From positions 139,988 to 203,987 of the forward strand of contig JBDTVZ010000003.1 in NCBI GenBank assembly GCA_040006935.1: a stretch of 64,000 nt of DNA, given 5' to 3'. The first letter of the stretch is position 1. Each line of letters starts with the position of its first letter. The notes under the pieces were generated by a model that saw only the letters and a program-made list of their open reading frames with translations, was not told the DNA's origin and searched no databases. Below are positions 15,524-52,284 of this stretch, in pieces. Origin of the DNA: Candidatus Dojkabacteria bacterium. GTDB taxonomy: Bacteria; Patescibacteriota; Dojkabacteria; J137. A program made the translations under genes and the position numbers.

Positions 15524-15540
15524 TTATTCTTCTTAAAATA

Positions 15541-30013: not shown

Positions 30014-30769
30014 CTATATTTCGCCCTTTTTCTTTTTCTCAGTTCTGAGCTTAATTCCAGTTATTATTAAAATAATAGCTAGAATAACTGTGAAAGCGCT
30101 GCCAAAGTCATCGCTGACACCAGTAACAGGTATGATTGTAGTCCCAGTAGTACTTCCGGTCGTTTGGTTCGGTGGAGGGGGAGGCGGTGTTGTCCCTGTC
30201 GTTCCGCCAGCAGTTGCAGTTTTTACCTGTACAGTAAGCTGGTTAGGTGTAAAAGCAACTCCAACTCCACTTTGTCTAATTAATCTACTTCCATTTACAT
30301 CCTGGAATATTTTTATAGTTGGGCTCCCTGCAGCTTGTGCTTGAAATTGTATTTCGGCAACATCTCTATTAACTTGAAAAGGATTCCCACTATCTACTTT
30401 AGCTATTAGAGTAATTCTACCATTCTGAGAAACTGTATTGTCAGTAGCAGGATCCGCCACAGTAAATATAGTATCTAATAGTTTAACTTGGGTACCGGTA
30501 GTGTTTGTGTCTTGATCAACAACTTGAAGCTTAGTTGAATCAAAATCGATAACTACTCGATACTCATTAATAGTTACGGTGTTTGTTTTAACTTCGACTG
30601 TAACTGTAAACTTCTCACCAACTTCTACAGATGTTTTGTCTGATCGTAAAAGCATGCTGGCAGTAACAGTACTACCACCGCTAACATCTATCGGTCCAAA
30701 CGTAGGCTGTGCAGCCGCATCTAGAGTTTGGGCTTTTACAATTGGAAATAAATTAATCAAATTGGACAC
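30014..30769 (-). CDS. Cell-surface protein with a Thr/Gly/Pro-rich stalk and a C-terminal sortase-type sorting-signal-like tail (IPVTG + hydrophobic + basic).
   Basis: ...TTGTTPPPPPPNQTTGSTTGTTIIPVTG-VSDDFGSA-FTVILAIILIITGI-KLRTEKKKKGEI. Confidence 0.55.
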   Translation of the reverse strand: MSNLINLFPIVKAQTLDAAAQPTFGPIDVSGGSTVTASMLLRSDKTSVEVGEKFTVTVEVKTNTVTINEYRVVIDFDSTKLQVVDQDTNTTGTQVKLLDTIFTVADPATDNTVSQNGRITLIAKVDSGNPFQVNRDVAEIQFQAQAAGSPTIKIFQDVNGSRLIRQSGVGVAFTPNQLTVQVKTATAGGTTGTTPPPPPPNQTTGSTTGTTIIPVTGVSDDFGSAFTVILAIILIITGIKLRTEKKKKGEI

Positions 30770-31686: not shown

Positions 31687-32655
31687 ATGGAGACGGCAAT
31701 TATCATAGTGAACTATAAAACTCCGTGGTATTTAAATAAGTGTTTAGAAAGTGTTTTCGAAAATACTTCGGACTTTCATATATTTATCGCCTTAAATTCT
31801 AACGATGAAGCGTCTTTAAAAGTAGTTAATAAATTTAAGAAAAAATATCCAAACGAAATTACTGTAATTGATAATAAGAAAAATTTAGGATTTGTGGGTG
31901 GTGTAAATTCTGCTTATTCACAAGCAATAAAATATGAACGAGTATGTTTATTAAATAGTGATACTATAGTAACGCCTGAATGGTTAATGGAGTTGAATAA
32001 AGTACTTGATGAAAATGATGATGTGGTGCAAGTGTCACCAGATTCAAATTCATTTTATGTTGATAAAAGTTTATGGAGATTTTCAAAATTACTGCCTCCT
32101 TTTTTAAGTAGATTGTCTTACTTGCAAATTTATACTAATTCACTCCCAGTTTCTACAAACTATGATGATCGTTTTAAAGAAATAAAATTTTATGAGTACA
32201 ATGAGTTCTATAAATTCTGTGCTGGTTTTTGTAATGTTTTCAAAAGTAAATACTTTAAAAATTTAGGATACTTTTGCGATCCAAACATAGTTCACGGTTA
32301 TTGGGACGATTTTGATTTATCAATGTATTTAAGAAAATTTGGAACTATTGGTTGGACCAACAGTTCTTACGTTTTTCATTATGTAAATATAAGTTTTAAT
32401 AAAATATCGGAAGAGAAAAAAGGAATGAAAGAAGAGTTGAATCTATTGAATGGATTATATGTAATGGATAAGTGGTCCAAGGAAGTTTTGGAAGGAATAA
32501 AAGAAATGGGACCAGAAGAATTAGAAGCAAGGCATGATTCCTATGTTGTAAATATGGCTTTAAAATATTTAGAACGTGTAAAAGAAGGTGCAAAATTTAC
32601 AGAGTATATTCAAACAATTCCGGCAAAATCAATTGGTGAAAAATTCCTAGGTTAA
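31687..32655 (+). CDS. GT2-family glycosyltransferase.
   Basis: AIIIVNYKTPWYLNKCLESV...; a 3-nt gap from the upstream GT2. Confidence 0.7.
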   Translation: METAIIIVNYKTPWYLNKCLESVFENTSDFHIFIALNSNDEASLKVVNKFKKKYPNEITVIDNKKNLGFVGGVNSAYSQAIKYERVCLLNSDTIVTPEWLMELNKVLDENDDVVQVSPDSNSFYVDKSLWRFSKLLPPFLSRLSYLQIYTNSLPVSTNYDDRFKEIKFYEYNEFYKFCAGFCNVFKSKYFKNLGYFCDPNIVHGYWDDFDLSMYLRKFGTIGWTNSSYVFHYVNISFNKISEEKKGMKEELNLLNGLYVMDKWSKEVLEGIKEMGPEELEARHDSYVVNMALKYLERVKEGAKFTEYIQTIPAKSIGEKFLG

Positions 32656-34073
32656 GGTCTTACGATATAAACATTATTATCAAAGTTCACAACTTCGCTA
32701 CCTTTCAATTCTTTGAAAAAATCTTCAGATCTTTCAGAACTTTTCTTAAAAATATAAACAGCTTTTTCTTTATTATTAAAAGCATCGTCTACTCCGAAAA
32801 TTGTTGCATTATTTAAATCTCGGTTCGCAAAATATATTACTTCTGGAACATCTGCATAAATTTTTTCATCTGCTTTTACATAACTCCTTAACCAATCTCC
32901 AGCTTCAGTGATTCCAGGTTCTATTTGGCTTCGAGTTTGCTGATTAAAAATTAAACCACCTCGTGTAAATATTAGTCCTGAAAATATTACCTGCAAAATA
33001 CAAATCATAATTATGATTAGTGAACTTTCAATTCTTGATTTAAGACCCACTAATATCTCATTGAAAAATAAACAAATAGAAATTATTGCTAATGGAATCA
33101 CTGTTATGAAATATCTCATCAAGCCTGCTGTTCCAAATAAACCAAATTTCCAAAATAAAACTTGGAGAAGAAAAAATAATGAAAATGAAAATATAATCCC
33201 AAATTCAATCCATTTTTTATTTCTAAAATATTTAAAAATATAAACAGCTGAAATCATAAATAAAGTAATAATCAACGGGTCTAGTTTAAAAAATCCTTCA
33301 AGATAATATGGATAACCACCATGACCGTATTTACCTACGGTTAAAGGATATCCACTATCGATAATATAAAAAATTCTTCCAGTCATTAGAAATCCGAAGA
33401 AGTCCCATATAATAGTCGGCAATAATAATAAAATGAGATTTAAGAAATATGATTTAAAATTTATGAATTTCTTAAGTCTTAAATCATAAATCAAATAAAC
33501 TATGAATATCACAACAAAGAATAAGCCTTCAATTCTAACCAAAGGTAATAATCCAAACATTAAACTCGAAAGTTTGAATTTTTTCTTTAATAGAAAATAA
33601 ATTCCAGCAATTAAAAATAATGCAAAAATTGGTTCTGTCATAATGCTTAAGCTTCCTCTTAGCATGAGGAAGGAAAAATTAGTAAGAACTAGTCCTAGAA
33701 TTTGTATTTGGAAATTACATTTAAGCACTTCTAAAATTTTAAGTACCAAATAGCTTGTCAGTAAAGTTAATAAAATAGTAAGTATTTGCACTGGAAAAAG
33801 ATTCGTAATACCAAATACCATTATCACTAAACCGTAAAGATAAATATAGCCAGGTTTTGACCAAACACCAATTCCGATATTTAAATTATGAGGAAAGTTT
33901 GTAAATAAAGTTTTAGCCTCTAGGAAATGCATATACTCATCTGCTTCCCATCCAAAACCATTTAATTTGGTAAGCAAGAATATTTTAACTAGAAAAATTC
34001 CACAGAGAATAAGTAAGATGATTAAAGACTTATTTCTTAACAATTGTTTTGTAAATTTAAGTTGCTGAATCAT
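32652..34073 (-). CDS. GT-C fold glycosyltransferase, PMT/ArnT (GT39/GT83)-like polytopic membrane protein.
   Basis: About 12 TM helices. A first-loop FGWEADEYMHFLEAKT motif resembling the DE..H/F loop-1 motif of the PMT/ArnT family. Confidence 0.6.
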   Translation of the reverse strand: MIQQLKFTKQLLRNKSLIILLILCGIFLVKIFLLTKLNGFGWEADEYMHFLEAKTLFTNFPHNLNIGIGVWSKPGYIYLYGLVIMVFGITNLFPVQILTILLTLLTSYLVLKILEVLKCNFQIQILGLVLTNFSFLMLRGSLSIMTEPIFALFLIAGIYFLLKKKFKLSSLMFGLLPLVRIEGLFFVVIFIVYLIYDLRLKKFINFKSYFLNLILLLLPTIIWDFFGFLMTGRIFYIIDSGYPLTVGKYGHGGYPYYLEGFFKLDPLIITLFMISAVYIFKYFRNKKWIEFGIIFSFSLFFLLQVLFWKFGLFGTAGLMRYFITVIPLAIISICLFFNEILVGLKSRIESSLIIIMICILQVIFSGLIFTRGGLIFNQQTRSQIEPGITEAGDWLRSYVKADEKIYADVPEVIYFANRDLNNATIFGVDDAFNNKEKAVYIFKKSSERSEDFFKELKGSEVVNFDNNVYIVRP

Positions 34074-34147
34074 CTATTAATTGAGTACATTTTTGTGGTG
34101 AAAGATAGTAAAATTACCTCTATTCAATCAATTTTAACATTAAATTA

Positions 34148-34879
34148 ATGAGCAAATTATCAATTGTAATTCCTGTATGGAACGAAGAAAGAACTCTCGA
34201 AGAACTTGTGAGAAAGGTTTATTCAGTAGATCTTCCAAGAAACTTTGAAAAAGAATTTGTAATTGTTAATGATGGTTCTAAAGATAAGTCATGGCAGATA
34301 ATGCTAAAACTTGCTACTGAATTAAAAAATGTAAAAGCAATTCAAAATGAAAAAAATATGGGGAAATCTCAAACAGTTCGGAATGGAATCTTAAAAACAA
34401 CTGGAGAATTCGTAATTATTCAAGATGCAGATTTAGAATACGATCCAAATGAAATTCAAAATTTGCTAAAGCTTGCTTTAGATAAAAATCTAGACGTAGT
34501 TTATGGAAATCGATTTGGTAAAGATAACAAAGTAATCTACTGGTTAAATTATATTGGCAATAGATTTCTTTCAGTATTTTCAAATGTCTTTACTCTTCCA
34601 CGAGTTAAAGTTTGGATTCCAGATATGGAAGTTTGTTATAAATTAGTTAAGGGAGATGTTTTTAGAGAAATTGCAAAAGATATTACAGCGAAATCGACTT
34701 TTGGATTGGAACCAGAAGTTACAGCAAAACTTTCGAAATATAAAGAAAACGGAAAACATTTAAAATTTGGAATTGTTCCAATTAGTTACTTCCCGAGAAG
34801 TATGGCTGAGGGAAAGAAAATGCATGCAGTCAAAGATGGATTAAAAGCAATGGTGGAAATAATAAAATATAACCTATAA
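34148..34879 (+). CDS. GT2 polyprenyl-phosphate glycosyltransferase (DPM1/ArnC/GtrB-like).
   Basis: LSIVIPVWNEERTLEEL...VIVNDGSKDKS...IIQDADLEYDP; a short soluble GT-A of 243 aa. Confidence 0.75.
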   Translation: MSKLSIVIPVWNEERTLEELVRKVYSVDLPRNFEKEFVIVNDGSKDKSWQIMLKLATELKNVKAIQNEKNMGKSQTVRNGILKTTGEFVIIQDADLEYDPNEIQNLLKLALDKNLDVVYGNRFGKDNKVIYWLNYIGNRFLSVFSNVFTLPRVKVWIPDMEVCYKLVKGDVFREIAKDITAKSTFGLEPEVTAKLSKYKENGKHLKFGIVPISYFPRSMAEGKKMHAVKDGLKAMVEIIKYNL

Positions 34880-34881
34880 TC

Positions 34882-35601
34882 ATGAGTATTAAATCTAATG
34901 ATAAAATCTACGTAATCATTCCGGCTTTTAACGAAGAACCTGTCATCTCTCAAGTTATTAAATCTGTTCAACAAGAAGGCTTTGAAAACATAATTGTTGT
35001 AAACGATGGTAGTTTTGATAATACCTCAACCGTTGCAAAAGAAACTGGTTGTATAGTTTTAGATCATTTAGTTAATCGAGGAAAAGGTGCAGCAACACAA
35101 ACAGGAATGGATGCTGCAAAACTTCTAGATGCAGATTACGCCGTGACTTTAGATGCTGACGGTCAGCATAACCCTGCAGACATTCATGAAATTCTAAAAC
35201 CCTTATTAAGTAAAGAAGTGGATGTCTCTCTCGGGAGTAGGTTCTTAAGTAAGCAGCCCATTCCTTTTTCAAGAGTTTTTGCAAACAAAGTTGGTAATTT
35301 AATTACGTTTTTATTCTACGGTATTCATGTATCAGACAGTCAGTCGGGATTCCGTGGATATAATACCAAAGCTTTAAAAACAATTTACACAACTTTTGAT
35401 CGATATGAATTTGAATCCGAAATAATTCATCAAATAAATATTCATCAATTAAAATATAAAGAAGTTCCAATTACGGTTTCATACTCAAATTATTCTCAAA
35501 ATAAATGGAAGAATATAAACAAAGGGACTCAAGTTTCGCAAACATTTCTTAATGGTTTCAATATGCTTTTTAGAATGATTATTAGAAGTATTACAACATG
35601 A
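34882..35601 (+). CDS. GT2 polyprenyl-phosphate glycosyltransferase (GtrB/ArnC-like), second copy.
   Basis: IYVIIPAFNEEPVISQVIKSV...VVNDGSFDNT...TLDADGQH. Confidence 0.75.
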   Translation: MSIKSNDKIYVIIPAFNEEPVISQVIKSVQQEGFENIIVVNDGSFDNTSTVAKETGCIVLDHLVNRGKGAATQTGMDAAKLLDADYAVTLDADGQHNPADIHEILKPLLSKEVDVSLGSRFLSKQPIPFSRVFANKVGNLITFLFYGIHVSDSQSGFRGYNTKALKTIYTTFDRYEFESEIIHQINIHQLKYKEVPITVSYSNYSQNKWKNINKGTQVSQTFLNGFNMLFRMIIRSITT

Positions 35602-35945
35602 CAGAAATATTTACTTATCAAATTATAGTTCTAATAGTTTGCGCACTATTAGTTTTGAGAACAATTTATTATTTTCTAAAAGGAATAAAATCTTTTAGAG
35701 AAGTAATTCTAGCAATTATAATTTGGGGAACATTTAGTTTAGTTAGTTTATTTCCTGTTGTTCTTCAAGACTTTGCACATTTACTTGGTTTTCAGCTTGG
35801 AGTTAATGCTGTATTAGTAATCTCAACTATAATCATTTTCTTCCTACTCTTAAGACTAATTGTTCGTGCAGATACACAAGAAATGATAATTACAAGATTA
35901 GTTAGAAGTTTAGCGTTAGAAGATTTAATGAAAAATAAGAATTAA
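35598..35945 (+). CDS. Small 3-4 TM membrane protein accompanying the GtrB-like GT2 (DUF2304/GtrA-like role).
   Basis: Hydrophobic 115-aa protein; 4-nt overlap with the upstream GT2. Confidence 0.4.
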   Translation: MTEIFTYQIIVLIVCALLVLRTIYYFLKGIKSFREVILAIIIWGTFSLVSLFPVVLQDFAHLLGFQLGVNAVLVISTIIIFFLLLRLIVRADTQEMIITRLVRSLALEDLMKNKN

Positions 35946-35954
35946 TTTCTAACT

Positions 35955-37100
35955 ATGGAAAAGATTGCTCTGGTTCTATATTATTACCAACCGTACGTAA
36001 GCGGACTTAGCAAATATGCCCAGACGATTGCAGAGGAACTTGCTGCCTCCGGAAATTACGAAGTGACTGTAATTACTTCCAAATATGAATCTTCAATTTC
36101 TCCCAACGAAACTATCAATAATGTAAAAGTATTAAGAAAGAAAGTATGGTTGAGTTTTGGGAAAGGAGTAATTGCGCCTGGAATAATTTGGGAATTATTT
36201 AAAAAAAGAAATAAATTCGATAAGGTTTTTGTTTTTGTTCCTTTTGGTGAGGCTGGAATAATCCCATTGGTTATAAATAAAAACAAACTATTTTCATTTT
36301 ATGTTTGCGATATAAATCTAGGAAAAAGTTTTATTATGAAGATAGTGGAAAAAATATCTTTTTTGTCAGCGAGAGTTTTATTAAATCGTTCTAAAAAAAT
36401 AATTCCTCTAAGTGACGACTACATGTTTCATTCAAGGATATTTAAGGAAAATGATAAGTCTAAGGTAATTTCATTATTTCCAAAAATAGAAGAGCCAGAT
36501 TTATCCGTTACAAAAGATCAAGTTGCTCAATACAAGTCTAGATACGGAATAAAAGAAAATGATTTTGTAGTTGGATTTTTAGGAAGAATAGTTTTTGAAA
36601 AAGGAATTGAATACTTAATTGATACAGTACCTCTACTCAAAGACAAAATAAAAAATCTTAAAATATTCATCGGTGGGGATTATAAAAACGTTCGAGGTGG
36701 AAGTGTATACGATAATTTAAAAGATAAAATAGAAAGTTATAAAGAAAATATTATTGTTACTGGATTTGTACTCGAGGAAGAAAAATCTTTATTTCTCCAT
36801 AGTTCAAATGTTTTTGTTCTTCCAAGTATTGATCCATTGGAGGCTTTTGGAATTGTTCAAGTTGAATCCATGATATGCGATGTTCCAGTAATTGCATCCT
36901 CTCTATTTGGTGTGAGAGAAGTTGTTAACAATACTAAATTTGGTTTCCTGGCTTCCCCAAAATCATCGGAGGAGCTTGCCGAAAAAATTATGCAAGTTTA
37001 TGAAAATGCTGATAAACTAAAGCCGTACAAGGATGAATATAAAAAATATTATTCGAATGAAATTTGGAAAAAACAATTATATAAAATTTTAGCTAATTAA
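35955..37100 (+). CDS. GT4-family glycosyltransferase.
   Basis: C-terminal PSIDPLEAFGIVQVESMICDVPVIAS motif. Confidence 0.75.
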   Translation: MEKIALVLYYYQPYVSGLSKYAQTIAEELAASGNYEVTVITSKYESSISPNETINNVKVLRKKVWLSFGKGVIAPGIIWELFKKRNKFDKVFVFVPFGEAGIIPLVINKNKLFSFYVCDINLGKSFIMKIVEKISFLSARVLLNRSKKIIPLSDDYMFHSRIFKENDKSKVISLFPKIEEPDLSVTKDQVAQYKSRYGIKENDFVVGFLGRIVFEKGIEYLIDTVPLLKDKIKNLKIFIGGDYKNVRGGSVYDNLKDKIESYKENIIVTGFVLEEEKSLFLHSSNVFVLPSIDPLEAFGIVQVESMICDVPVIASSLFGVREVVNNTKFGFLASPKSSEELAEKIMQVYENADKLKPYKDEYKKYYSNEIWKKQLYKILAN

Positions 37101-37102
37101 CT

Positions 37103-37804
37103 ATGCAGTTTGTTAAAGAAGATCAAAAATATTTTAACTCAAAGTATTTCAATAATAATGGTCAAAGCGGAGATAGATTAGCTCTTCAATTTTACTTTGA
37201 TATTCTAAAAAATTATTTAAAAGACGGAAAAGTTTTTGAATTTGGTTGTGGTGAGGGATATTTGTCTAAAAGAATTGCAACTAAATTTGATAGTTATGCG
37301 TACGATTTATCTGAATACTGTAGAAATAAAACCAAAGAGATTTCACCAAAATCTACAATAATAAATGCTGAAGCTGATTTCCCCTCAGATTCTTTTAATG
37401 CAGTGGTTACTCTTCATACATTAGAACATGTCCCAAATCCGCCGGAAACATTAGCTCTATTAAACAAATCCTTAAAAGTAGGAGGAATATTATTATTTGT
37501 TGTCCCTAACCCAAATGGATTAGGCCATAAAATAAAAAGAGAGAAATGGTTTGGATATAGAGATACTACACATATTTCCATGTATGAAAGTAGCAAATGG
37601 AAAGAGTTAGTTAAGTCATCAGGGTTTGAAATTGTAAAAACGGCATCTGATGGATTCTGGGATGTTCCCTATGTAAAATATCTTCCAAATATCCTACAAA
37701 AATTAATCTTTTTCCCAAGTGCTGGAATACAAGTTATTCTAAAAAGACTCTTCTTACCCGATTGGTTTGGAGAAGATTTAATTATGGTTGCAAGAAAGAA
37801 ATGA
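37103..37804 (+). CDS. Class I SAM-dependent methyltransferase.
   Basis: Motif I VFEFGCGEGYLS. Confidence 0.75.
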   Translation: MQFVKEDQKYFNSKYFNNNGQSGDRLALQFYFDILKNYLKDGKVFEFGCGEGYLSKRIATKFDSYAYDLSEYCRNKTKEISPKSTIINAEADFPSDSFNAVVTLHTLEHVPNPPETLALLNKSLKVGGILLFVVPNPNGLGHKIKREKWFGYRDTTHISMYESSKWKELVKSSGFEIVKTASDGFWDVPYVKYLPNILQKLIFFPSAGIQVILKRLFLPDWFGEDLIMVARKK

Positions 37805-38181
37805 AAAAAAAATCTATGTTCACACTAATCGATATCATTCTCTTTATATCCATTACAATAATTGCATCTATTGCAAATGTATTATTAAAAATTGGATCCG
37901 GTAAATTTATTTCGTATATTAATCCTGTACAATTCGTAACAGACAACCTCACAATACTTTTGGGTTATGTTTTGTATCTTATTCCTTTATTTCTAACAGT
38001 TATGTTATATAAAAAATTTAAGGTGAGTTTAGTTCAAACTGTGGCAGCAAGTGTTTATATTCTGACTCCATCATTGGCTGTAATCGTAGGGGTGGAAAAT
38101 TTAAATATTTATAAAGTAATAGGAATTGGATTAATAACCACGGCAGTGATTTATATAGTAAATTTAAGCTCTAAAGAATAA
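37801..38181 (+). CDS. SMR/EamA-like 4-TM small membrane protein (ArnE/ArnF-like putative lipid-linked sugar flippase subunit).
   Basis: About 126 aa with 4 hydrophobic helices; ATGA overlap with the methyltransferase stop at 37801-37804. The tracked start at 37762 is probably too early. Confidence 0.5.
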   Translation: MKKKSMFTLIDIILFISITIIASIANVLLKIGSGKFISYINPVQFVTDNLTILLGYVLYLIPLFLTVMLYKKFKVSLVQTVAASVYILTPSLAVIVGVENLNIYKVIGIGLITTAVIYIVNLSSKE

Positions 38182-38522
38182 TGCAAATACTGGATATCTT
38201 ATTAATAATTATTGATGTGAGTATTACCTCTCTAGGTGGAGTATTCCTCAAAGTAGGGGCTACTCGCAAAAATTTATTGGTGAAGCTTTTCTTTGTTGGC
38301 TTAGGAATTGGGATTTATCTTGGAATGTCCTTCATTACAGTCTTCCTATATTCAAAATATAGCATTGTTTTCGTACAAACAGCATTAGCTTTTACATATG
38401 TGACAACTCCTCTATTTGCAATGATTTTTCTTAAAGAAAAGGCTAGTAAAAAGATATTTCTTGGTCTATTGCTAATTGTAATAGGTGTGTTCTTTGTTAG
38501 TTATGGAAACTCTATAAACTAG
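38181..38522 (+). CDS. SMR/EamA-like 4-TM small membrane protein, the paired partner (ArnE/ArnF-like).
   Basis: 113 aa with 4 hydrophobic helices; TAATG overlap with the upstream paralog. Confidence 0.5.
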   Translation: MQILDILLIIIDVSITSLGGVFLKVGATRKNLLVKLFFVGLGIGIYLGMSFITVFLYSKYSIVFVQTALAFTYVTTPLFAMIFLKEKASKKIFLGLLLIVIGVFFVSYGNSIN

Positions 38523-38538: not shown

Positions 38539-39390
38539 TTAAATCTTAAATGCCAGTATTCCCAACATATAAAATCCCCAAATAACTACTAAAGTAATTA
38601 GCGGTTTGCTTTTAAATAAAGCAGACACAGGATCCTCTACTAGCTCTCCTGAAAATAATTCATAGAAATAAAGCATGAATCCTAGTACAACAAAAACTAT
38701 AGAAAGTTCAAAGGCCAAGCTTTTGGTAGTAGTGTATAAAGAATAGAACAAAATCGTGCTGAAAGAGGCAAGAGTGAGTACATATTTCAGAAAGTCATTA
38801 GTGTAGTGTTCCAGAACTTTTCTACTAGAACTGCCATTATTTGCCAGTTCCGCGTATCTTTTCCCTGAGCCTAGGAATAAAGCAAAGAAAAATGTTGTTA
38901 ATAAAATCCACGAAGACAAATCTACACCTGTCACAATACCTCCTGCCAACACTCTGATAATGTAGAATACTGCGAGAACAATAATATCCACTACAGCGAC
39001 ATGTTTTAAGTAAGTAGTATAAAGAATGTTGAGTATTAAATAGGTCACTAGAATCAAAACAAAGCTTGTTTCTAAATATAATGCAATAAAGATTGAAATT
39101 ATCAAAAGAATAGCTGCTAAAACCCAAGCAAATGATACACTTATAATATTTGCAGCAATTGGTCGAGTTTTCTTTTTAGAATGTTTACGATCACTTTCAA
39201 CATCTCTAATATCATTGAAAATATAAACTGTGCTTGCCATTAGCGAAAAACTTACGAATGCAAGAATATTAACTAAGTCTTTATTGAAATGTATAAATTC
39301 ACCAGAAAATATTAAAGGAAGGAATAAGAATCCATTCTTAACCCACTGGTGAACTCTCATTAATTTTAGAATGCTTTTTAATTTCTTCAT
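38539..39390 (-). CDS. UbiA-family prenyl-phosphate 5-phosphoribosyltransferase-like enzyme (DPPR synthase / Rv3806c-like).
   Basis: NDIRDVESDRKHSKKKTRPIAANIIS closely matches the ND..DvE.DR.HP.K..RPIA signature of the decaprenyl-phosphate phosphoribosyltransferase subfamily. The start is assigned to MKKLK, giving an ATGA overlap with the PAP2 stop. Confidence 0.65.
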   Translation of the reverse strand: MKKLKSILKLMRVHQWVKNGFLFLPLIFSGEFIHFNKDLVNILAFVSFSLMASTVYIFNDIRDVESDRKHSKKKTRPIAANIISVSFAWVLAAILLIISIFIALYLETSFVLILVTYLILNILYTTYLKHVAVVDIIVLAVFYIIRVLAGGIVTGVDLSSWILLTTFFFALFLGSGKRYAELANNGSSSRKVLEHYTNDFLKYVLTLASFSTILFYSLYTTTKSLAFELSIVFVVLGFMLYFYELFSGELVEDPVSALFKSKPLITLVVIWGFYMLGILAFKI

Positions 39391-39881
39391 ATAATTGTGA
39401 TATTTAAAGTACCGACAATTATACCTAAACATATGCTAAATAGCACATCTGATGCGTAATGATGTTTTAGAGTTATTCTTGAAAGTGCAACTAGGAATGC
39501 ATAACATGTCACCACAATCCCAAGATAAAAATTCAAGTTAAAGCACAATGGTAAGATTTGGAATGCTGTAAATGTATGTGCTGATGGAAACGAATATTGA
39601 TCGGGTCCAAGTCCAGTAAGTCTTTTCAAATGAGATTTACTAGGCTCTACCGGCCTTGTTCGTTTGATAATTCTTTTTAATATGAAAATAAAAATATCTG
39701 CAATAAAGAACACTACAATATTCAAAAGAATAGTATTATTCAAAAATACGAAGTTGATAAACAAAAAGAAAATATAAGTTATTTTTGGGTTAATCGAAAA
39801 AATTAGAATTAAATTTCTAATTTTTGATTTCCTTAAAAACTCTGTTTTTTCAAATACAAAATTGTCTAATTCGTTGATCAT
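39387..39881 (-). CDS. PAP2-family membrane phosphatase (Rv3807c-like).
   Basis: PAP2 motifs KRTRPVEP ... PSAHT ... SRITLKHHYASD. Confidence 0.75.
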   Translation of the reverse strand: MINELDNFVFEKTEFLRKSKIRNLILIFSINPKITYIFFLFINFVFLNNTILLNIVVFFIADIFIFILKRIIKRTRPVEPSKSHLKRLTGLGPDQYSFPSAHTFTAFQILPLCFNLNFYLGIVVTCYAFLVALSRITLKHHYASDVLFSICLGIIVGTLNITII

Positions 39882-39882
39882 A

Positions 39883-40104
39883 TTATAAAGCAGTTCTACC
39901 CATAATCAGATTAAGCAAATCTTTAACACTTATCAAAGCTACTTTTATCCCATGTACTTTATCTGGAGTAAGTGCAAAAACAAAATAATCTATAAAGAAA
40001 ATTAAAAATACGATTAATATTAGTGACTCTATAACTATTTTATTTTGGACTAGTTTTTTAAATATTTGTTTCATAAATTGCATAAGTATGTAAATCGCTT
40101 GCAT
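39883..40104 (-). CDS. Small hydrophobic protein between the PAP2 and GT-C genes.
   Basis: 73 aa with 1-2 TM helices; it overlaps the GT-C 3' end by 47 nt. It may be real or may reflect an alternative C-terminus of the GT-C. Confidence 0.3.
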   Translation of the reverse strand: MQAIYILMQFMKQIFKKLVQNKIVIESLILIVFLIFFIDYFVFALTPDKVHGIKVALISVKDLLNLIMGRTAL

Positions 40105-42304
40105 TAGTTAAACCAAATCTAATTTTTGATATTGAATTATATTTTAAAGGTATTGTTTGTGTTCCAAACATCACACCATTTCCATTTTCGGGAGCAAAAT
40201 CCAAGTTGACAAATGTCTCATCATTTCCTAGGAATATATGGAAAAATATTGCAGGATTCTCAATTTCGTCGGGTTTATTTAAATAAAATTCGATACTAAA
40301 GGTTTTAACTCCATAAACTTCGGTAAGTTTATAATCTTTAATCACAACCGCTTTACTAATATCGTTTTCAAATGTTTTTTCTGAAAGGGTCTTTTTAGTT
40401 GAAGTATTTGGTTTATATGCAAATAGGAAATGAGGTCCATCAATATCCGTAATTAATTTTTCGAATAACTCTGGATGTTTATTAGCAATTGCTGCTTCTG
40501 GCATTCCGTCCAAAACAACTACATAAACTGGGTTAACTTTAGCAACTGCATCTAGCCACACTGAATCGTCACCTGGTCTTGCGGGAACAAAAACAACGTC
40601 ATTACTAAAGTCTTTATTGTACAGAGCATAAGGAAACCAAATTTTATCTCCTATTACTACACTCTGATTTTTGCCTAGTGTAGTATTAATAAGTATATTC
40701 ATGTCCCGTGTCTTGAGTGAACTTGCATAACTAATATTATCCGCATTTATTAATTGTTTGATAGTATCTACCGGTCTAAAAAAAGTTCCATCTATAGTCA
40801 GTACAAAACTTAATCCAAATAATAAAAATAGAACTATAAGTACAATATAGCGTCCCAATTTAGAAGTAATATACTTATTTAATAAATATATGAACGGAAT
40901 TATTCCAGCTATACATATAAATCCCGTATAGTGTGGAATCCAATTCCCTGGAAGCACAAGTAATATTAAAGTAGGAACTATTATAAAAATAAATAAATCT
41001 AAATATTTCTTTAAAATCGAAATTAAAAAAACAATCAGCATACTTGGTAATAAGAATACAAACCAAATCGAACCAAACCCATCTAATTTGCCATCAGCTA
41101 TATAATAAACTCCAGACCATCCTTCTCTCTCCTCCCAAACATAGATTAACCTTTGTATAAGATTTCTACTTTCAATTTGAGGTAGGCTATTAGTAAAATC
41201 TAAACCAGCCCATTCACCCGGGAAATGTATCCCTAAAACTGTAAATTCCACTGGGAATAATGGATTACCAAAGTAGTACCAACTCCTAAAATACCAAAAT
41301 GAGCCAAGTACAAACATCGCTACAATAATAAATCCAGTGAGAATTACTAAAGGTTTAAAGATTTTTCTCCAACCAATTTGTTTGAATAAAACTATTAAAA
41401 ACCCTAAATAGAAAACAAGAACATAAATTATCGCAGAAGATTTTGATCCAAAAATTATTCCTAAAGATAAACAGATCCCAACAAAAAGTGTAAGATTTTT
41501 TCTTTTGAAAACTTCTTTAAAATTTATATTTAACAGGAGATATAAAGAAGCCATTAATAAGGTCCACATTGTAATGTCTACTTTTTCGGTTTTTGAGACT
41601 AATAATAATATTGGTATGCTATAAACTAAAAGTCCTCCAATAATTGCAAATCTTTTCTTAGATCCAAAATGACGACAAAGTAAGTAAATAACTCCACTTA
41701 GGGAAATGAGAAAGTACATATTAGTTATTTCTGCAAGGACGTCACTTCGGAAGAAAATCATATTCCATAAATCCAGAAGTTCGATATCATGTGGGAAACT
41801 AATGGTATACAAATGTGTATAATCAAAGTACCTTATTTGACCAGTTTTAATAATATCGGCTACAAATCCTAGATGATAATGATAATCATCCCACGAAGTA
41901 GGCGGATGAACTATAATCAGAATCAAAAGATTAGTTAAAGTAAATATTGCGAGAATAATAAATGCCCACAAAATAATATCTCTTTTATTAACTTTCTTGA
42001 ATTCATTATTAAAATTCTTTAATTTACTTAACAATATCTTTGGTCTAAATCTGGAGACATAAAGTAATATAAGTGATATCCCAATATTTAGAGTAAATAA
42101 TTCAACTGGGTATAAACGTTTAAGAATTAGTCCCAAGAAGAAAGAAGTTAGAATAATTTGAGTAATTCCAAATATGAAAGTAAGTATAAAATTGAATCGT
42201 CTTTGTAAATTAAACTTCTCTTTGAAAAACCAGTACCAACCTAAAATCAGAAAGGAATTTATGATTATATATGCGAGTAAATTTATTAGGAATGACTCAG
42301 TCAT
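40058..42304 (-). CDS. Large GT-C fold polytopic membrane glycosyltransferase (arabino/ribofuranosyltransferase-like; lipid-linked donor user).
   Basis: 748 aa. About 13 or more TM helices in the N-terminal 500 aa with a WDDYHYH loop motif after an early TM helix, and a soluble ~230-aa C-terminal domain. Confidence 0.55.
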   Translation of the reverse strand: MTESFLINLLAYIIINSFLILGWYWFFKEKFNLQRRFNFILTFIFGITQIILTSFFLGLILKRLYPVELFTLNIGISLILLYVSRFRPKILLSKLKNFNNEFKKVNKRDIILWAFIILAIFTLTNLLILIIVHPPTSWDDYHYHLGFVADIIKTGQIRYFDYTHLYTISFPHDIELLDLWNMIFFRSDVLAEITNMYFLISLSGVIYLLCRHFGSKKRFAIIGGLLVYSIPILLLVSKTEKVDITMWTLLMASLYLLLNINFKEVFKRKNLTLFVGICLSLGIIFGSKSSAIIYVLVFYLGFLIVLFKQIGWRKIFKPLVILTGFIIVAMFVLGSFWYFRSWYYFGNPLFPVEFTVLGIHFPGEWAGLDFTNSLPQIESRNLIQRLIYVWEEREGWSGVYYIADGKLDGFGSIWFVFLLPSMLIVFLISILKKYLDLFIFIIVPTLILLVLPGNWIPHYTGFICIAGIIPFIYLLNKYITSKLGRYIVLIVLFLLFGLSFVLTIDGTFFRPVDTIKQLINADNISYASSLKTRDMNILINTTLGKNQSVVIGDKIWFPYALYNKDFSNDVVFVPARPGDDSVWLDAVAKVNPVYVVVLDGMPEAAIANKHPELFEKLITDIDGPHFLFAYKPNTSTKKTLSEKTFENDISKAVVIKDYKLTEVYGVKTFSIEFYLNKPDEIENPAIFFHIFLGNDETFVNLDFAPENGNGVMFGTQTIPLKYNSISKIRFGLTNASDLHTYAIYETNI

Positions 42305-42423: not shown

Positions 42424-43698
42424 ATGAATCCCATGGATAAAATAAAAAAATTTATTGGTATATATCAAAATTTTGGTCTAAGTTACTTTCTGGATTTGAT
42501 TATCAGAAAAGCATCCTTCGGGAAGATAAATTTAAATATTAAACCTAATTTTGATAAATTTCTAGAAAACAATGTTTCATCGGATCACTCAAAGAAACAA
42601 ATTATCTTCTTTGTCCCTTGGTTTACTTTTGGGGGAACAGATATTGTAAACTACACGCTCCTTAATAATATGGACCAAACTAAATTCCAGTTCCATCTCT
42701 TCTCTACAATCCGAGGAGCAAACAATATTTGGTTTGATAAATTTAAAGCTATTAATAACGAAATTTTTCATCTTCCTGATTTAATATCAGAAGATAATTA
42801 CGAAGAGTTGATAAAAAAGTATATTAAGTATGTGAATGCAGAGACTTTTTTTGTTTCTAATTCATCTAAAGGTTATGACTTAATCCCATTCGTCAGAAGA
42901 GAATTCCCTCAAATTAAGATAGTCGATCTTTTACATGGACAAGGAGGCTCTAAAGAAAGTGGTGGTTTCCCAGAATATTCTAAAAATCTAGATAAATATA
43001 TTGATACAAGAATTGCAATTAATAATTTCTTAAAGAACTATTTAATAGAAAAATATAATATAGATCCTAAAAAAATAACAGTAATCCAAAATGCTATTGA
43101 ATTCAGTGATAAAGTGGAGAAAGGTATATATAGATCAAAACAAAAAGTGGATGAGAACGAATTTGTTGTTACGTACTTAGGAAGATTAGCACCAGAGAAA
43201 CATCCTGAAATTATTGTAAAAATAGCAAATGAGCTTGTTAATAATCAAGGTGTGGGAAATATCAGCTTTTTTATTGGAGGCGATGGACCACTTTTCGACG
43301 AGGTATCCAAAGAAATTCGAACTTTAAAACTAGGAAATAAAATTCATCTATTAGGCTATTATCCGAATAATGAAGCGGTCAAAATTCTAAGTGATTCTAA
43401 CCTTCTTGCTGTGACATCTGAGATGGAAGGTTCTCCCATTGTAATTCTAGAAGCAATGAATTTAGGAGTACCCGTCCTAGCAAGTAAAGTTGGTGGAATT
43501 CCAGAACAAGTGGACGATCAAATAACTGGCGTATTGATAGAGTTCAATGAGAACTTTGTAGAAACGGCCGCCCAAGAAATTCTTGAGTTGAAAAATAATA
43601 GAGAAAAGCTCTCCTCAATGGGTTTAAAATCCAAAGAGAAAGCAACAACAACTTTTTCAGTTAAAGAGATGATTTCGAAGTACGAAAGTTCACTTTAA
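42424..43698 (+). CDS. GT4-family glycosyltransferase.
   Basis: EGSPIVILEAMNLGVPVLASKVGGIPE. Confidence 0.8.
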   Translation: MNPMDKIKKFIGIYQNFGLSYFLDLIIRKASFGKINLNIKPNFDKFLENNVSSDHSKKQIIFFVPWFTFGGTDIVNYTLLNNMDQTKFQFHLFSTIRGANNIWFDKFKAINNEIFHLPDLISEDNYEELIKKYIKYVNAETFFVSNSSKGYDLIPFVRREFPQIKIVDLLHGQGGSKESGGFPEYSKNLDKYIDTRIAINNFLKNYLIEKYNIDPKKITVIQNAIEFSDKVEKGIYRSKQKVDENEFVVTYLGRLAPEKHPEIIVKIANELVNNQGVGNISFFIGGDGPLFDEVSKEIRTLKLGNKIHLLGYYPNNEAVKILSDSNLLAVTSEMEGSPIVILEAMNLGVPVLASKVGGIPEQVDDQITGVLIEFNENFVETAAQEILELKNNREKLSSMGLKSKEKATTTFSVKEMISKYESSL

Positions 43699-48489: not shown

Positions 48490-49185
48490 TTACTTATTTT
48501 TAATAAATATCATTGCATTCTGTGATAGCCACCATGCAACTTTCTTTTCTTTTAAACTTTCTCTCATTTTCATCGTATCTTCCTTTTTATATTCAAATCC
48601 TTGTTCCTCAAAAAGTTTAATCCAATATTCATTAGGCTGCTCATTAATATGGTCATCTCCACCTTGTCCCGGAATCGCAGCAGTAAAGAATAGCTTATCT
48701 GCATGTCTTGTCATATTACCAACTAAAGTAGAAGCAAATTTAGCCTGTAAATGCTCTGCAACTTCTATACAGATTACAAGATCAAATTTTTTCCCTAACT
48801 CTAACTTCTTTCTTAAATCGAAAACTTGAATATATTTAGGATCAACTAATGCATTTTGTTTTGCCCAGTCGCTTCCATCAACCCCCTGTGCATCAACCCC
48901 CCGTTTCAAAAATTCTCTTAGGTAAGGACCATTTCCGCAACCAACGTCCAGCAATGTTTTAGGTTGAAAATAATTATATAGTTCATCAATAAATCTATTC
49001 ATATTGGGAAGATTTGAAATATCTTCGTAATATTCGCCATTATAAATTGTGCTAATTTCATTTTTACCCTGTACTCTTGCAAGGAATTTCCTAACTTTAT
49101 ATTCTAAAGATTTAGAAGCTCTGAAGATTACGTATTTGAAGCCGTGATTCTTGAAATATAAATAGTAATTTGAAAAAAGATTCAT
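48490..49185 (-). CDS. Class I SAM-dependent methyltransferase.
   Basis: Motif I LLDVGCGNGPYL; 1-nt gap to the downstream GT2. Confidence 0.7.
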   Translation of the reverse strand: MNLFSNYYLYFKNHGFKYVIFRASKSLEYKVRKFLARVQGKNEISTIYNGEYYEDISNLPNMNRFIDELYNYFQPKTLLDVGCGNGPYLREFLKRGVDAQGVDGSDWAKQNALVDPKYIQVFDLRKKLELGKKFDLVICIEVAEHLQAKFASTLVGNMTRHADKLFFTAAIPGQGGDDHINEQPNEYWIKLFEEQGFEYKKEDTMKMRESLKEKKVAWWLSQNAMIFIKNK

Positions 49186-49252
49186 AACATTATCTGATAA
49201 AATATTGCTACAATTATAATCTAAAAAAGTAATTTGTTATACAGATTTTATT

Positions 49253-51503: not shown

Positions 51504-51504
51504 T

Positions 51505-52284
51505 TTAGAAAAATTCCGCTATTTGTTTAACTTTGTAATTAAAATAGATCCAACCTAGAATCACAATTAATACGCTAACTGCGAAGTAAGCCAACATCAA
51601 GGGTAAATTAATATCACCATAAATTCCAAACCCTGCTCTAACCTGATTTAAAATTATTCCAATAGGATTGAATCTTATTATCTTAGCTGTAAATGAATCA
51701 AATAAACTATTGTCCACCACATACATAATTGGTGTTGCCCAGAATAATAGAAAGAATGCGAGTTCGAAAATATTTTTTAAATCTCTAAACCTAACTGTAA
51801 GAATACTTGTAAAAAAAGATAAACCTAAATTAAATAAGAAAATAATCAGTGTCAAAAACAGAACATACAAAATTCCCATTGGGTTTATTTCTTTACCCTG
51901 CAGAACTAATATTATAAAAATGAAAATTAGATTAATGAACAAATTTATTACACCACTAAACAATGCACTGATTATCGCTATCTGCCTTGGGAAATTAACT
52001 TTCAATATAATATGCGCTCTTTCCAATAGTGACATCTGTCCTAGTATTGCGAGCTCATTAAAGTATGTATAAAAAACTATTCCAATTAATAAATATAAGG
52101 GGTAATTTTCTATACTTTGACTTGATATCTTAGACCACACAAAGTACATTACAAGAAATGTAGCGTATGGTTTGATTAAAACCCATAGAATACCAAGAAT
52201 TGAATTCTGATATCTCATCTTAAAACTCGTTTTCACCAGCTCATTCAGAAGGTCAATTTTTGCTCTATCAATTATTTTTGCCAT
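51505..52284 (-). CDS. wzm: ABC-2 type polysaccharide exporter permease (Wzm/TagG-like).
   Basis: 259 aa with 6 TM helices in ABC-2 topology; a 1-nt gap to wzt. Confidence 0.75.
   Translation of the reverse strand: MAKIIDRAKIDLLNELVKTSFKMRYQNSILGILWVLIKPYATFLVMYFVWSKISSQSIENYPLYLLIGIVFYTYFNELAILGQMSLLERAHIILKVNFPRQIAIISALFSGVINLFINLIFIFIILVLQGKEINPMGILYVLFLTLIIFLFNLGLSFFTSILTVRFRDLKNIFELAFFLLFWATPIMYVVDNSLFDSFTAKIIRFNPIGIILNQVRAGFGIYGDINLPLMLAYFAVSVLIVILGWIYFNYKVKQIAEFF

Follow-up and report, generated by a model that had tools for sequence, protein, structure and literature searches.

A 21-kb glycan island (~30.8–52.3 kb) was found in a 64,000-nucleotide stretch (the window) of a Candidatus Dojkabacteria metagenome-assembled genome. 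On balance, we favor the reading that this island juxtaposes three independent systems (A, B and C) for the extracytoplasmic addition of side-chain sugars, partly within one operon. Judged jointly with this reading and favored to the same degree are two further proposals: that the island is the locus for an ABC-transporter-dependent cell-surface glycopolymer in this member of the candidate phyla radiation, and that its pair of SMR-like proteins belongs with a neighboring ribose-lipid pathway and not with the enzymes among which a first-pass annotation had placed it. The division into three units follows from synteny. Gene identities, folds, conserved motifs, the opposite charge bias of the SMR-like proteins and synteny were observed directly, and from them we infer donor sugars, acceptors and flipping activity. 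The locus is real and coherent, and is largely explained by known systems; known kinds of decoration machinery are found here in an unstudied phylum.

The open reading frames of the first-pass annotation were all recovered at the same positions and with the same overlaps. They are genuine genes and not chance reading frames, since homologues of each recur in other metagenome assemblies and NCBI annotates them (ABI721_04835 to _04870). The genes of GT2a, GT2b, a DUF2304 protein and the two SMR-like proteins form one operon with intergenic gaps of at most 9 bp. An ATGA overlap joins the methyltransferase gene to SMR1 (37801–37804) and the previously noted TAATG joins SMR1 to SMR2 (38179–38183), both readable directly in the sequence. 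A convergent operon, overlooked by the first-pass annotation, begins 17 bp past the last SMR gene. At the end of the island lie the genes of a Wzm/Wzt ABC exporter with a Wzt_C domain (50211–52284, minus strand; ABC_tran 3e-21, Wzt_C 3.4e-19, ABC2_membrane 1e-12), the source of the probable acceptor polymer; additional methyltransferases and a GT2-GT4 fusion complete the polymer context. At the edge of the island, positions 30014–30769 encode a surface protein that is rich in Thr and Pro and apparently sortase-anchored.

Unit A comprises the membrane glycosyltransferase GT-C473 (473 aa; 32652–34073, minus strand) and the divergently encoded GT2a (243 aa; 34148–34879, plus strand; PF00535 4e-29); a cytoplasmic 322-aa GT2 (31687–32655, plus strand; PF00535 3e-15) is a conserved neighbor of GT-C473. 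The AF2 model of GT-C473 (pLDDT 91.3, pTM 0.90) has a multi-helix GT-C fold with about 11–13 membrane helices, so that the 12 proposed earlier is an approximate count, followed by a C-terminal alpha/beta domain. The description of this protein as PMT/ArnT-like was appropriate at the level of fold; the protein itself matched no Pfam model, and only a few of its 22 homologues (26–68% identity) weakly matched PMT (4/22) or PMT_2 (3/22). The acidic loop-1 motif expected from the first inspection lies directly after TM1 (E43-A-D45-E-Y-M-H49; family form W-E-x-D-x-Y-x-H), and a check set in advance showed that E43, D45 and H49 are invariant in all 22 homologues, as are K73, P74, T146, E147, R180 and E182. 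We predict GT-C473 to be an extracytoplasmic transferase using the product of GT2a.

The best Foldseek matches of GT-C473 in the PDB (TM ~0.6) were STT3, ArnT (5ezm), ALG12, ALG9, PglB, DPY19 and Pmt4. Together with the weak PMT and PMT_2 matches in the family and the sortase-anchored protein mentioned above, the presence of STT3, PglB, Pmt4 and DPY19 in this list could indicate a PMT- or oligosaccharyltransferase-like protein O-glycosyltransferase that modifies a surface protein, pilin or S-layer protein in place of an ABC-exported polymer. We regard this as rather unlikely, given that the lipid- and glycan-modifying enzymes ArnT, ALG9/12, AftA/B and PimE fit the fold equally well, that GT-C473 sits among cytoplasmic GT2/GT4 genes and Wzm/Wzt, and that a further GT2 is the conserved neighbor on its opposite flank.

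GT2a has DPMS (5mlz, 1e-16), GtrB (5ekp) and ArnC as closest solved relatives, and the AglJ model covers it from end to end. Hydrophobic or transmembrane segments were found in neither GT2a nor GT2b, in agreement with their initial description as short soluble enzymes of the polyprenyl-phosphate-sugar synthase type. In 7 of 10 related loci bearing GT-C473, homologues of GT2a (44–73% identity) lie between 55 bp and 4.5 kb from the GT-C gene, and in L001–L004 homologues of the 322-aa GT2 (52–68% identity) adjoin it. According to this model, GT2a, working at the cytoplasmic face, would make a hexose-type donor linked to polyprenyl phosphate, and GT-C473 would then move its sugar onto an acceptor outside the membrane; the 322-aa GT2 may build the acceptor residue.

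The first-pass annotation had joined these genes into a single complete module, in which an SMR heterodimer flips the product of GT2a and/or GT2b for use by GT-C473. In the window this arrangement is suggestive: all genes except that of GT-C473 lie in one tight operon divergent from it, neither GtrA nor Wzx was found as another flippase candidate among the window reading frames scanned with Pfam, and relaxed substrate specificity has been reported for ArnE/F. However, the SMR pair, GT4, the methyltransferase, UbiA and TM748 are absent from all 10 GT-C473 loci, two of which (L002 and L004) carry a GtrA-family protein instead; GT2a is the conserved neighbor. In the closest relative, L001, the gene series GT2a-GT2b-DUF2304 simply ends there. 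Conversely, every informative locus with the SMR pair contains TM748 and/or UbiA homologues and lacks GT-C473. The concept of synthase, flippase and GT-C holds, but synteny does not support these genes as one complete module, and we consider that arrangement improbable.

Unit B, also separable from GT2a, consists of GT2b (239 aa; 34882–35601, plus strand; PF00535 2.7e-24) and the DUF2304 protein (115 aa; 35598–35945, plus strand; PF10066 56.1 bits against a cut-off of 25.5). The two GT2s had been treated as one set; both are of the synthase type, but GT2b belongs with the DUF2304 gene, which had been missed and which overlaps it by 4 nt. GT2b matched the NCBIfam PpgS model over its full length with 136.8 bits, which falls short of the equivalog cut-off (370), and the AglJ model with 122 bits; its PDB relatives are DPMS and ArnC, and it carries a DADGQH motif. 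The DUF2304 protein has three hydrophobic helices, and the pair is kept in L001 (65% and 63% identity). A GacI/GacJ complex and the stimulation of PpgS by Rv3632 have been described (bioRxiv 10.1101/180810). By analogy, we propose that the DUF2304 protein is a GacJ/Rv3632-type activating partner of GT2b, a PpgS/GacI-like enzyme that is probably a polyprenyl-phosphate (N-acetyl)hexosamine-type synthase. The activated GT2b would thereby make a second polyprenyl-phosphate sugar, probably HexNAc. Three donor synthases and two GT-Cs were counted in the window, so one donor/GT-C assignment is incomplete.

SMR1 (126 aa; 37801–38181, plus strand; NCBI start at 37816) is a 4-TM half-size DMT protein, and SMR2 (113 aa; 38181–38522, plus strand) is its 4-TM paralogue (31% identical), each with four hydrophobic helices. 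Only 21 cluster representatives related to SMR1 (E ≤ 1e-3) were retrieved among 1.8 billion proteins. EamA was matched by 19 of them and Multi_Drug_Res (PF00893) by one; among NCBIfam models, ArnF was matched by 14 and ArnE by 13, with any Qac or Ebr model at 6/21 or fewer. In this other check set in advance, the small proteins thus group with EamA and ArnE/ArnF and not with the EmrE/Qac/SugE models, in favor of the earlier view. SMR2 itself gave weak matches (EamA 3.8e-4; ArnE 2.3e-3, 18 bits against an ArnE/ArnF cut-off of 92) and SMR1 gave none to ArnE/ArnF, so the ArnE/F-like placement rests on more distant family members. An ordinary exporter of drugs, guanidinium or polyamines, present in a glycan operon by chance, would have the same size and four-helix layout; 'EmrE-like' appears among the database annotations of distant relatives, and the family profile weakly matches TM2–TM4 of EmrE (E about 0.02–0.04). 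Nevertheless, we consider this explanation highly unlikely in view of the Pfam counts, of the synteny with GT4, TM748 and UbiA kept across genomes of 31–49% GC, and of the middle of TM1, which has no conserved acidic residue at the place of the glutamate that is essential in proton-coupled SMRs (PMC9574504).

The K+R bias is +4 for SMR1 and −7 for SMR2 (−4 to −6 in four SMR2 orthologues), and SMR2 always lies 3' of SMR1, the two genes either overlapping or separated by a short distance. This predicts that SMR1 (N-in) and SMR2 (N-out) are subunits of a heterodimeric lipid-linked-sugar flippase. According to work cited in bioRxiv 10.1101/2020.04.19.049825, E. coli arnE/F restored the arabinose content of an M. 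smegmatis Rv3789 mutant and relieved its accumulation of decaprenyl-P-arabinose.

The partners of the SMR pair were identified in a few contigs, of which several are short. The gene orders were UbiA..GT4-SMR1-SMR2-TM748 in L012, PRPP synthetase-UbiA-TM748-GT4-SMR1-SMR2 in L018, with PRPP synthetase directly upstream of UbiA, SMR1-SMR2-TM748 in L019, and TM748-PAP2-UbiA in L014 and L015 (UbiA 45–46% identity). In L016, TM748..GT4-MT-SMR1-SMR2 faces UbiA-PAP2, convergent as in the window and with Wzm/Wzt close by. UbiA accompanies both the SMR pair and TM748 in three contigs, L012, L016 and L018 (33–51% identity), PAP2 and UbiA are found paired in L014, L015 and L016 (44–49% identity), and TM748 occurs in all six contigs together with UbiA, the SMR genes or both. 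GT4 (35955–37100, plus strand; PF00534 4e-35) invariably comes before the SMR genes, and its homologues (51–55% identity) lie immediately 5' of them in L012, L016 and L018. Homologues of the SAM-dependent methyltransferase (37103–37804, plus strand; PF13489 1.3e-24) adjoin those of SMR1 in L013 and L017 (56–62% identity), and a different methyltransferase occupies the corresponding position in L016. Unit C groups the SMR pair with GT4, often a methyltransferase, UbiA, PAP2 and TM748; the last three fall outside the region grouped by the first-pass annotation.

Within the convergent operon, the UbiA-family protein (38539–39432, minus strand; true start probably at 39390) scored 211.9 bits with NF008978 (decaprenyl-phosphate phosphoribosyltransferase), above the curated cut-off of 207, and carries an NDIRDVESD motif, which identifies it as a polyprenyl-phosphate 5-phosphoribosyltransferase (DPPR/PPPR synthase). 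Next to it, at higher coordinates, lie the genes of a PAP2 phosphatase (39387–39881, minus strand; PF01569 1.3e-16), predicted to remove the 5-phosphate in the role of Rv3807c, and of TM748 (748 aa; 40058–42304, minus strand). The structure prediction of TM748 had a pLDDT of 42.6, and its top PDB sequence matches, ArnT and EmbC, were non-significant; its status as a GT-C paralogue comes from profile homology. In hhalign, it aligned with the GT-C473 family over 367 columns (probability 93.6%, E 2e-7), pairing SWDDYxYH..FPHN with GWExDxYxH..FPHN, and it has an additional N-terminal region of ~110 aa and a beta-rich C-terminal region of ~120 aa. We predict that TM748 is a pentofuranosyltransferase. 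The pentose is presumed to be ribofuranose, because neither DprE1/E2 nor a pentose epimerase was found among the window reading frames scanned.

In the proposed unit C pathway, the UbiA enzyme would move 5-phosphoribose from PRPP onto polyprenyl phosphate, the PAP2 enzyme would take off the 5-phosphate, and an antiparallel SMR1/SMR2 heterodimer would carry polyprenyl-P-ribofuranose across the membrane, where TM748 would add the pentofuranose to the exported polymer. The acceptor residue on the polymer would probably come from the co-conserved GT4. Since the SMR genes appear co-transcribed with those of GT2a, GT2b and DUF2304, the pair may, in this genome, serve units A and B as well as C.

Several known systems resemble parts of this island. 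ArnC, ArnE, ArnF and ArnT carry out the undecaprenyl-P-Ara4N modification of lipid A. The window shares with them a GT2 synthase, a GT-C and tandem 4-TM DMT subunits of ~110–130 aa without a central glutamate, whose relatives match ArnE and ArnF more often than any other named family. In contrast, it lacks ArnA/B/D genes and its host lacks lipid A, SMR1 and SMR2 score well short of the ArnE/ArnF cut-offs, the C-terminal TM helices of ArnC are missing from the GT2s, and GT-C473 lies outside the ArnT/PMT_2 Pfam families. GacI/GacJ/GacK/GacL of Streptococcus pyogenes and PpgS/Rv3632/Rv3779 of M. tuberculosis are comparable to unit B in having a GT2 with a three-TM DUF2304 partner, and to the island in the extracytoplasmic GT-C decoration of an ABC-exported polymer; however, GT2b is far below the PpgS equivalog cut-off, and the window has no Wzx-type GacK. 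The mycobacterial decaprenyl-phosphoarabinose pathway uses Rv3806c, Rv3807c, DprE1/DprE2, Rv3789 and the Emb/Aft GT-Cs. Unit C has in common with it the UbiA-type DPPR synthase, an adjacent separate PAP2 and a GT-C that would use the lipid-linked pentose, but it has an ArnE/F-like pair in place of the GtrA-family Rv3789 and a single GT-C in place of a battery of arabinosyltransferases; lacking DprE1/DprE2 in the window, its donor would presumably be ribofuranose and not arabinofuranose.

Unit A fits the GtrA/GtrB/GtrV-type scheme of three-component glucosylation (Mann & Whitfield 2016, as cited in PMC11127046), a likeness extended by the GtrA-family protein of its relatives, although a TM anchor is missing from GT2a and GtrA from the window. 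Unit C corresponds to the published three-component system of Citrobacter youngae O1/O2, in which ORF15 (PPPRS-PRP), ORF14 (a 4-TM EmrE/ArnE-like flippase) and ORF12 (GT-C/GT136) decorate an ABC-exported O antigen with side chains of pentofuranose (Kelly et al. 2024, PMC11127046). The two differ in that the phosphatase is a separate PAP2 in the window, as in mycobacteria, and a fused HAD-type PRP domain in C. youngae, and in that two paralogous flippase genes with opposite charge bias replace a single one. In addition, TM748 has the ~110-aa N-terminal extension, GT4 is co-conserved, and the patescibacterial host has no outer membrane or LPS. Both systems nonetheless have a PRPP-dependent UbiA-type polyprenyl-phosphate phosphoribosyltransferase, a step that removes the 5-phosphate, an EmrE/ArnE-like flippase of four helices for which antiparallel dimers are predicted, and a GT-C whose C terminus carries an additional beta-rich domain, within an ABC-transporter-dependent polymer locus that includes terminator-type methyltransferases.

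The source MAG of the window, a Candidatus Dojkabacteria of the candidate phyla radiation, has a GC content of about 30 %. In the first-pass annotation, positions 32652-38522 had been described as one complete module for the synthesis, flipping and transfer of a lipid-linked monosaccharide. ORF calling recovered every ORF of that description with the same boundaries, and we also found a gene that it had overlooked, encoding a DUF2304 protein (35598-35945, plus strand). Seven plus-strand genes between 34148 and 38522 are separated by gaps of at most 9 bp or overlap, and thus form one apparent operon: two GT2 genes (GT2a, 34148-34879, and GT2b, 34882-35601), the DUF2304 gene, a GT4 gene (35955-37100), a methyltransferase gene (37103-37804) and two small SMR-like genes (SMR1, 37801-38181, and SMR2, 38181-38522). 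The TAATG junction reported between SMR1 and SMR2 is legible in the sequence as a one-base overlap, as is an ATGA junction ahead of the pair. On the minus strand, the 473-aa protein GT-C473 (32652-34073) is 100 % identical to NCBI ABI721_04835, encoded on a 213-kb contig. A search for promoters and terminators was uninformative (shuffled sequences had more sites), and neither Rfam models nor a tRNA scan gave a match in the window.

Comparison across genomes separated the genes of this operon. We scanned for GT-C473 loci, taking one genome per species, and obtained 11 loci, 10 of them informative; locus L011, with a 51-residue match at its very start and no neighbour homologues, was set aside. 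A GT2a homologue (44-73 % identity) was located 55 bp to 4.5 kb from the GT-C473 homologue in seven of the 10 loci, and the GT2 encoded at 31687-32655 had a homologue in four (52-68 % identity). The GT2b and DUF2304 pair was present only in L001, the closest relative. The SMR pair, the GT4, the methyltransferase and three genes downstream of the operon, encoding a UbiA-family protein (38539-39432, minus strand), a PAP2 phosphatase (39387-39881, minus strand) and a 748-aa membrane protein, TM748 (40058-42304, minus strand), were absent from all 10 informative loci. The proposal of a single complete module is therefore not sustained, since none of these loci carries the SMR pair, the GT4 or the methyltransferase. 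Two of them, L002 (5566-6054) and L004 (5557-6045), encode GtrA-family proteins (PF04138, 6e-17) about 1.3 kb from the GT2a homologues, which indicates that relatives complete unit A (GT2a plus GT-C473) with a GtrA-type protein that is absent from the window.

The contigs encoding the closest SMR1 relatives, together with tblastn, showed where the SMR pair belongs. In L016, the TM748 homologue (36 %), a small ORF, the GT4 (52 %), the methyltransferase, SMR1 and SMR2 are convergent with UbiA (51 %) and PAP2 (44 %); this layout is that of the window, and Wzm/Wzt genes are close by. L012 carries UbiA, Gmd, an SDR, the GT4 (55 %), SMR1 (47 %), SMR2 (48 %), a TM748 homologue (41 %) and a methyltransferase, and L018, with a GC content of 49 %, carries PRPP synthetase, UbiA, a TM748 homologue, a small ORF, the GT4, SMR1 and SMR2. 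L019 has SMR1, SMR2 and a TM748 homologue, and in L014 and L015 a TM748 homologue, PAP2 and UbiA follow the order seen in the window. Because the SMR-pair contigs carry UbiA homologues, TM748 homologues or both, we assign the pair to the convergent operon at 38539-42304, which falls outside the limits of the module as first drawn. A metagenome scan for TM748 returned two short loci only. We accordingly distinguish unit A, unit B (GT2b plus DUF2304) and unit C (the GT4, with or without the methyltransferase, and the SMR pair, with UbiA, PAP2 and TM748), so that the earlier interpretation had the type of system right but its composition wrong. Given the apparent operon and the lack of another flippase gene nearby, the SMR pair possibly also serves units A and B here.

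Some of these contigs showed further features. Between UbiA and the GT4, L012 encodes two SDRs, one of them a GDP-mannose 4,6-dehydratase (6919-8866); their position points to a GDP-6-deoxyhexose as a possible substrate of the co-conserved GT4. We considered that the SDR genes might be pentose epimerases, and rejected this, as one is a GDP-mannose 4,6-dehydratase (1e-113) and the other a related reductase or epimerase. Two contigs that are unrelated to each other (L016, 7338-7544, and L018, 6557-6742) have single-TM ORFs (61-68 aa) separating the TM748 homologue from the GT4, and no counterpart was seen in the window. In L016, a GT2a homologue (60 %) adjoins a 659-aa DUF7657/DUF7654 protein instead of a GT-C473 homologue (12829-15537); this protein may be another GT-C-like partner.

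The AlphaFold2 model of GT-C473, built on an alignment of 22 homologues, reached a pLDDT of 91.3 and a pTM of 0.90. All 17 Foldseek matches in the PDB at E <= 1e-3 were GT-Cs (TM about 0.55-0.63), with STT3, ArnT, ALG12, ALG9 and PglB at the top and DPY19, Pmt4, AftA/B and PimE lower. Homology searches returned 24 homologues, mostly from Patescibacteria. After TM1, a W-E-x-D-x-Y-x-H motif has E43, D45 and H49 invariant in the 22 aligned sequences, and K73, P74, T146, E147, R180 and E182 are likewise invariant. A GT-C is expected to conserve one or more acidic residues in the first extracytoplasmic loop after TM1, and the predicted loop of GT-C473 does so; the loss of this motif had been named as a finding that would count against the assignment, and E43 and D45 are kept in every sequence. 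GT-C473 itself had no Pfam match at E <= 0.01 and only trivial NCBIfam matches, the family profile found nothing significant among PDB sequences, and weak PMT and PMT_2 matches appeared in 4 and 3 of 22 family members, respectively. The description as a PMT/ArnT-like GT-C thus holds for the fold but not for membership of PF02366 or PF13231 (GT39/GT83), for which there was no match above the gathering score. Since the significant matches to solved structures are all GT-Cs, GT-C473 is a GT-C outside the PMT and ArnT sequence families.

The two GT2 enzymes had been described as soluble polyprenyl-phosphate-sugar synthases, and their features agree with this: neither has a hydrophobic segment, and the nearest characterised relatives are DPMS, GtrB, ArnC and PpgS. 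Among solved structures, GT2a matched DPMS (of Pyrococcus, 1e-16), GtrB (2e-14) and ArnC (2e-14), and it scored below the equivalog cut-offs of both ArnC (66.4 vs 529) and AglJ (73 vs 325). The motifs DADLEYDP in GT2a and DADGQHNP in GT2b resemble DADLQxxP, which we take to be the signature of polyprenyl-phosphate glycosyltransferases. Unit A matches the scheme of a GtrB-type enzyme plus a GT-C. For GT2b, whose relatives in the PDB are DPMS and ArnC, the full-length NCBIfam matches were PpgS (136.8 bits, 6.9e-40, below the equivalog cut-off of 370) and AglJ (122 bits, 2.3e-35, likewise below its cut-off). The gene overlapping it by 4 nt encodes a three-helix DUF2304 protein (PF10066, 56.1 bits vs a cut-off of 25.5), and the pair is kept in L001. 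DUF2304 proteins include GacJ, a complex partner of the GlcNAc-P-undecaprenol synthase GacI that strongly boosts the activity of this enzyme, and Rv3632, which stimulates PpgS (bioRxiv 10.1101/180810). The arrangement of unit B, a GT2 synthase followed by a small DUF2304 membrane protein, is the same as in GacI/GacJ and PpgS/Rv3632.

SMR1 and SMR2 are paralogues (31 % identity) with four helices each, and show opposite K+R biases (+4 and -7, respectively) that are kept in their orthologues (0 to +4 and -4 to -6), a signature of an antiparallel heterodimer. Adjacent genes, four-helix subunits of about 110-130 aa and opposite predicted orientation bear out the ArnE/ArnF arrangement proposed earlier. 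The SMR1 subfamily is a rare one: an exhaustive search of 1.8 billion proteins gave 21 cluster representatives at E <= 1e-3, and a word-indexed search with SMR2 found no protein other than SMR2. A grouping with the drug-efflux proteins EmrE and SugE would have spoken against a lipid flippase. Instead, 19 of the 21 family members matched EamA and one matched Multi_Drug_Res (PF00893), which matches neither SMR protein of the window; the commonest named NCBIfam matches were ArnF (14/21) and ArnE (13/21), and Qac, Ebr, Mdt, SugE and EmrE reached at most 6/21. With NF011625 and NF002816, SMR2 obtained 18.1 bits against the ArnE/ArnF cut-off of 92 and SMR1 gave no match, and PDB sequence searches with both proteins returned nothing significant. 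The pair is thus predicted to be ArnE/F-like in working and, judged by sequence, is outside the ArnE/ArnF family. In the alignments, the middle of TM1 has no conserved acidic residue, and the central glutamate is also absent from lipid-transporting SMRs (PMC9574504). A TM1 Asn/Asp was considered as the 'central' residue of lipid SMRs and dropped, as TM1 could not be aligned to EmrE. No ArnA, ArnB, ArnC, ArnD or ArnT gene of the Ara4N pathway was found among the window ORFs scanned.

Regarding gene starts, SMR1 begins at 37816 (121 aa) in NCBI and at 37801 (126 aa) in another public record. More distantly related 4-TM EamA proteins of 113-139 aa, encoded in tandem with 4-nt overlaps, are conserved as pairs in L020-L023 and in a JGI contig (that of P0132), divergent from signal peptidase S26 and ManC-like nucleotidyltransferase genes. 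Half-size DMT proteins in tandem pairs thus seem to recur widely as an uncharacterised theme.

UbiA passed the curated cut-off of the decaprenyl-phosphate phosphoribosyltransferase model NF008978 (211.9 vs 207) and carries an NDIRDVESD motif; in L018, the PRPP synthetase gene is adjacent to it. As called, its ORF overlaps PAP2 by 46 nt, and the family models align only from residue 15-19, which makes M15 (39390, a 4-nt overlap) the likelier start. PAP2 (PF01569, 1.3e-16), overlapping UbiA and syntenic in L014-L016, is predicted to correspond, by analogy, to the mycobacterial Rv3807c step. TM748 gave no family match, and in a PDB sequence search its best matches, ArnT and EmbC, were non-significant. 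A six-sequence TM748 profile aligned with the GT-C473 family over 367 columns (93.6 % probability, E 2e-7), placing SWDDYxYH and FPHN on the GT-C473 motifs, and D139 and D140 are invariant in the six homologues. From this alignment, we infer that TM748 is a GT-C paralogue to which about 110 N-terminal residues and a C-terminal beta-rich region have been added. The single-sequence AF2 model (pLDDT 42.6) was too poor to use, so the beta-rich extension is of low confidence, and the C-terminal 105 aa matched no Pfam domain.

These units are part of a glycan island that extends from a GT2 gene at 30883 to Wzm/Wzt (50211-52284, minus strand), in which Wzt bears a Wzt_C carbohydrate-binding domain. 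The island includes a 943-aa GT2-GT4 fusion (43690-46521, minus strand), two extra methyltransferases (48490-50209) and, according to the Pfam scan of the window ORFs, additional GT2 and GT4 genes. Its layout is that of an ABC-transporter-dependent, terminator-capped polymer; Wzm, Wzt_C, the fusion and the two methyltransferases suggest that methylation caps the polymer and that Wzt_C reads the capped end. At the island edge is an ORF of 251 aa, as called, with no Pfam match (30014-30769, minus strand). Its N-terminal part is beta-rich and is followed by a linker rich in Thr, Gly and Pro (..TATAGGTTGTTPPPPPPNQTTGSTTGTT..), by IPVTG and a hydrophobic helix, and finally by a KKKK tail; this C-terminus looks like a sortase sorting signal. 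The product could be a glycoprotein acceptor, and the acceptor of GT-C473 could be a protein. Elsewhere in the window are a stand-alone 23S rRNA intervening-sequence protein (PF05635; 59448-59909, minus strand), a Fic-domain protein (16301-17530, minus strand) and a 1009-aa membrane protein of the Acyl_transf_3 type that is considerably extended at its C-terminus (3003-6032, plus strand).

Overall, known mechanisms occur here as new family variants and combine into a coherent locus, for which the donor sugars, the acceptors and the flipping activity are predicted. The expected product is a polymer that would receive as many as three types of side-chain sugar, a pentofuranose among them, on the outside of the cell. 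The locus also defines two GT-C families for which Pfam has no model. To our knowledge, the cell envelope of the candidate phyla radiation is almost uncharted experimentally. We tentatively propose, at somewhat less than even confidence, that Patescibacteria such as Dojkabacteria place pentofuranose on an ABC-exported envelope polymer by means of a previously undescribed conserved set (a UbiA phosphoribosyltransferase, a PAP2 phosphatase, an ArnE/F-like flippase that is an obligate heterodimer, a new GT-C family and a GT4 dedicated to the pathway), in which the half-size DMT pair, and not GtrA, would be the native polyprenyl-P-pentofuranose partner. If so, it would offer a clean genetic handle on the long-disputed flipping of lipids of the decaprenyl-P-arabinose/ribose type. 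Natural genetic evidence on which protein translocates polyprenyl-P-pentofuranoses, a point still debated in mycobacteria for Rv3789, comes from the recurring association of an ArnE/F-like heterodimer with a phosphoribosyltransferase pathway. For annotation, the lesson is that adjacency in one operon can merge separate modules, and that assigning a flippase needs synteny across genomes.

Two known systems bear on unit C. In mycobacteria, the DPA pathway has the DprE1/DprE2 pair; among the window ORFs scanned with Pfam we found no DprE1/DprE2, FAD_binding_4/ALO or DprE2-type SDR, nor GtrA or Wzx. In work cited in bioRxiv 10.1101/2020.04.19.049825, E. coli arnE/F reportedly restored the arabinose content of an M. 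smegmatis Rv3789 mutant and relieved its accumulation of decaprenyl-P-arabinose; given this rescue, an ArnE/F-like protein is plausible as a flippase of pentose lipids. The other system is the three-component pentofuranose side-chain system of Citrobacter youngae, which acts on an ABC-exported O antigen and combines PPPRS, a four-helix EmrE/ArnE-like flippase for which an antiparallel dimer was modelled, and a GT-C of family GT136 that carries a carbohydrate-binding module at its C-terminus (PMC11127046). Unit C matches this system, its polyprenyl-phosphate phosphoribosyltransferase being of the UbiA type. The two differ in the candidate phosphatase, a separate PAP2 in the window, as in the mycobacterial Rv3807c solution, versus the HAD-type PRP domain of C. 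youngae ORF15; in the flippase, a predicted two-gene heterodimer in the window; and possibly in the GT-C, where the TM748 family is an unplaced GT-C homologue and that of C. youngae belongs to GT136. Unit C further departs from it in the co-conserved GT4 and in its host, the Patescibacteria.
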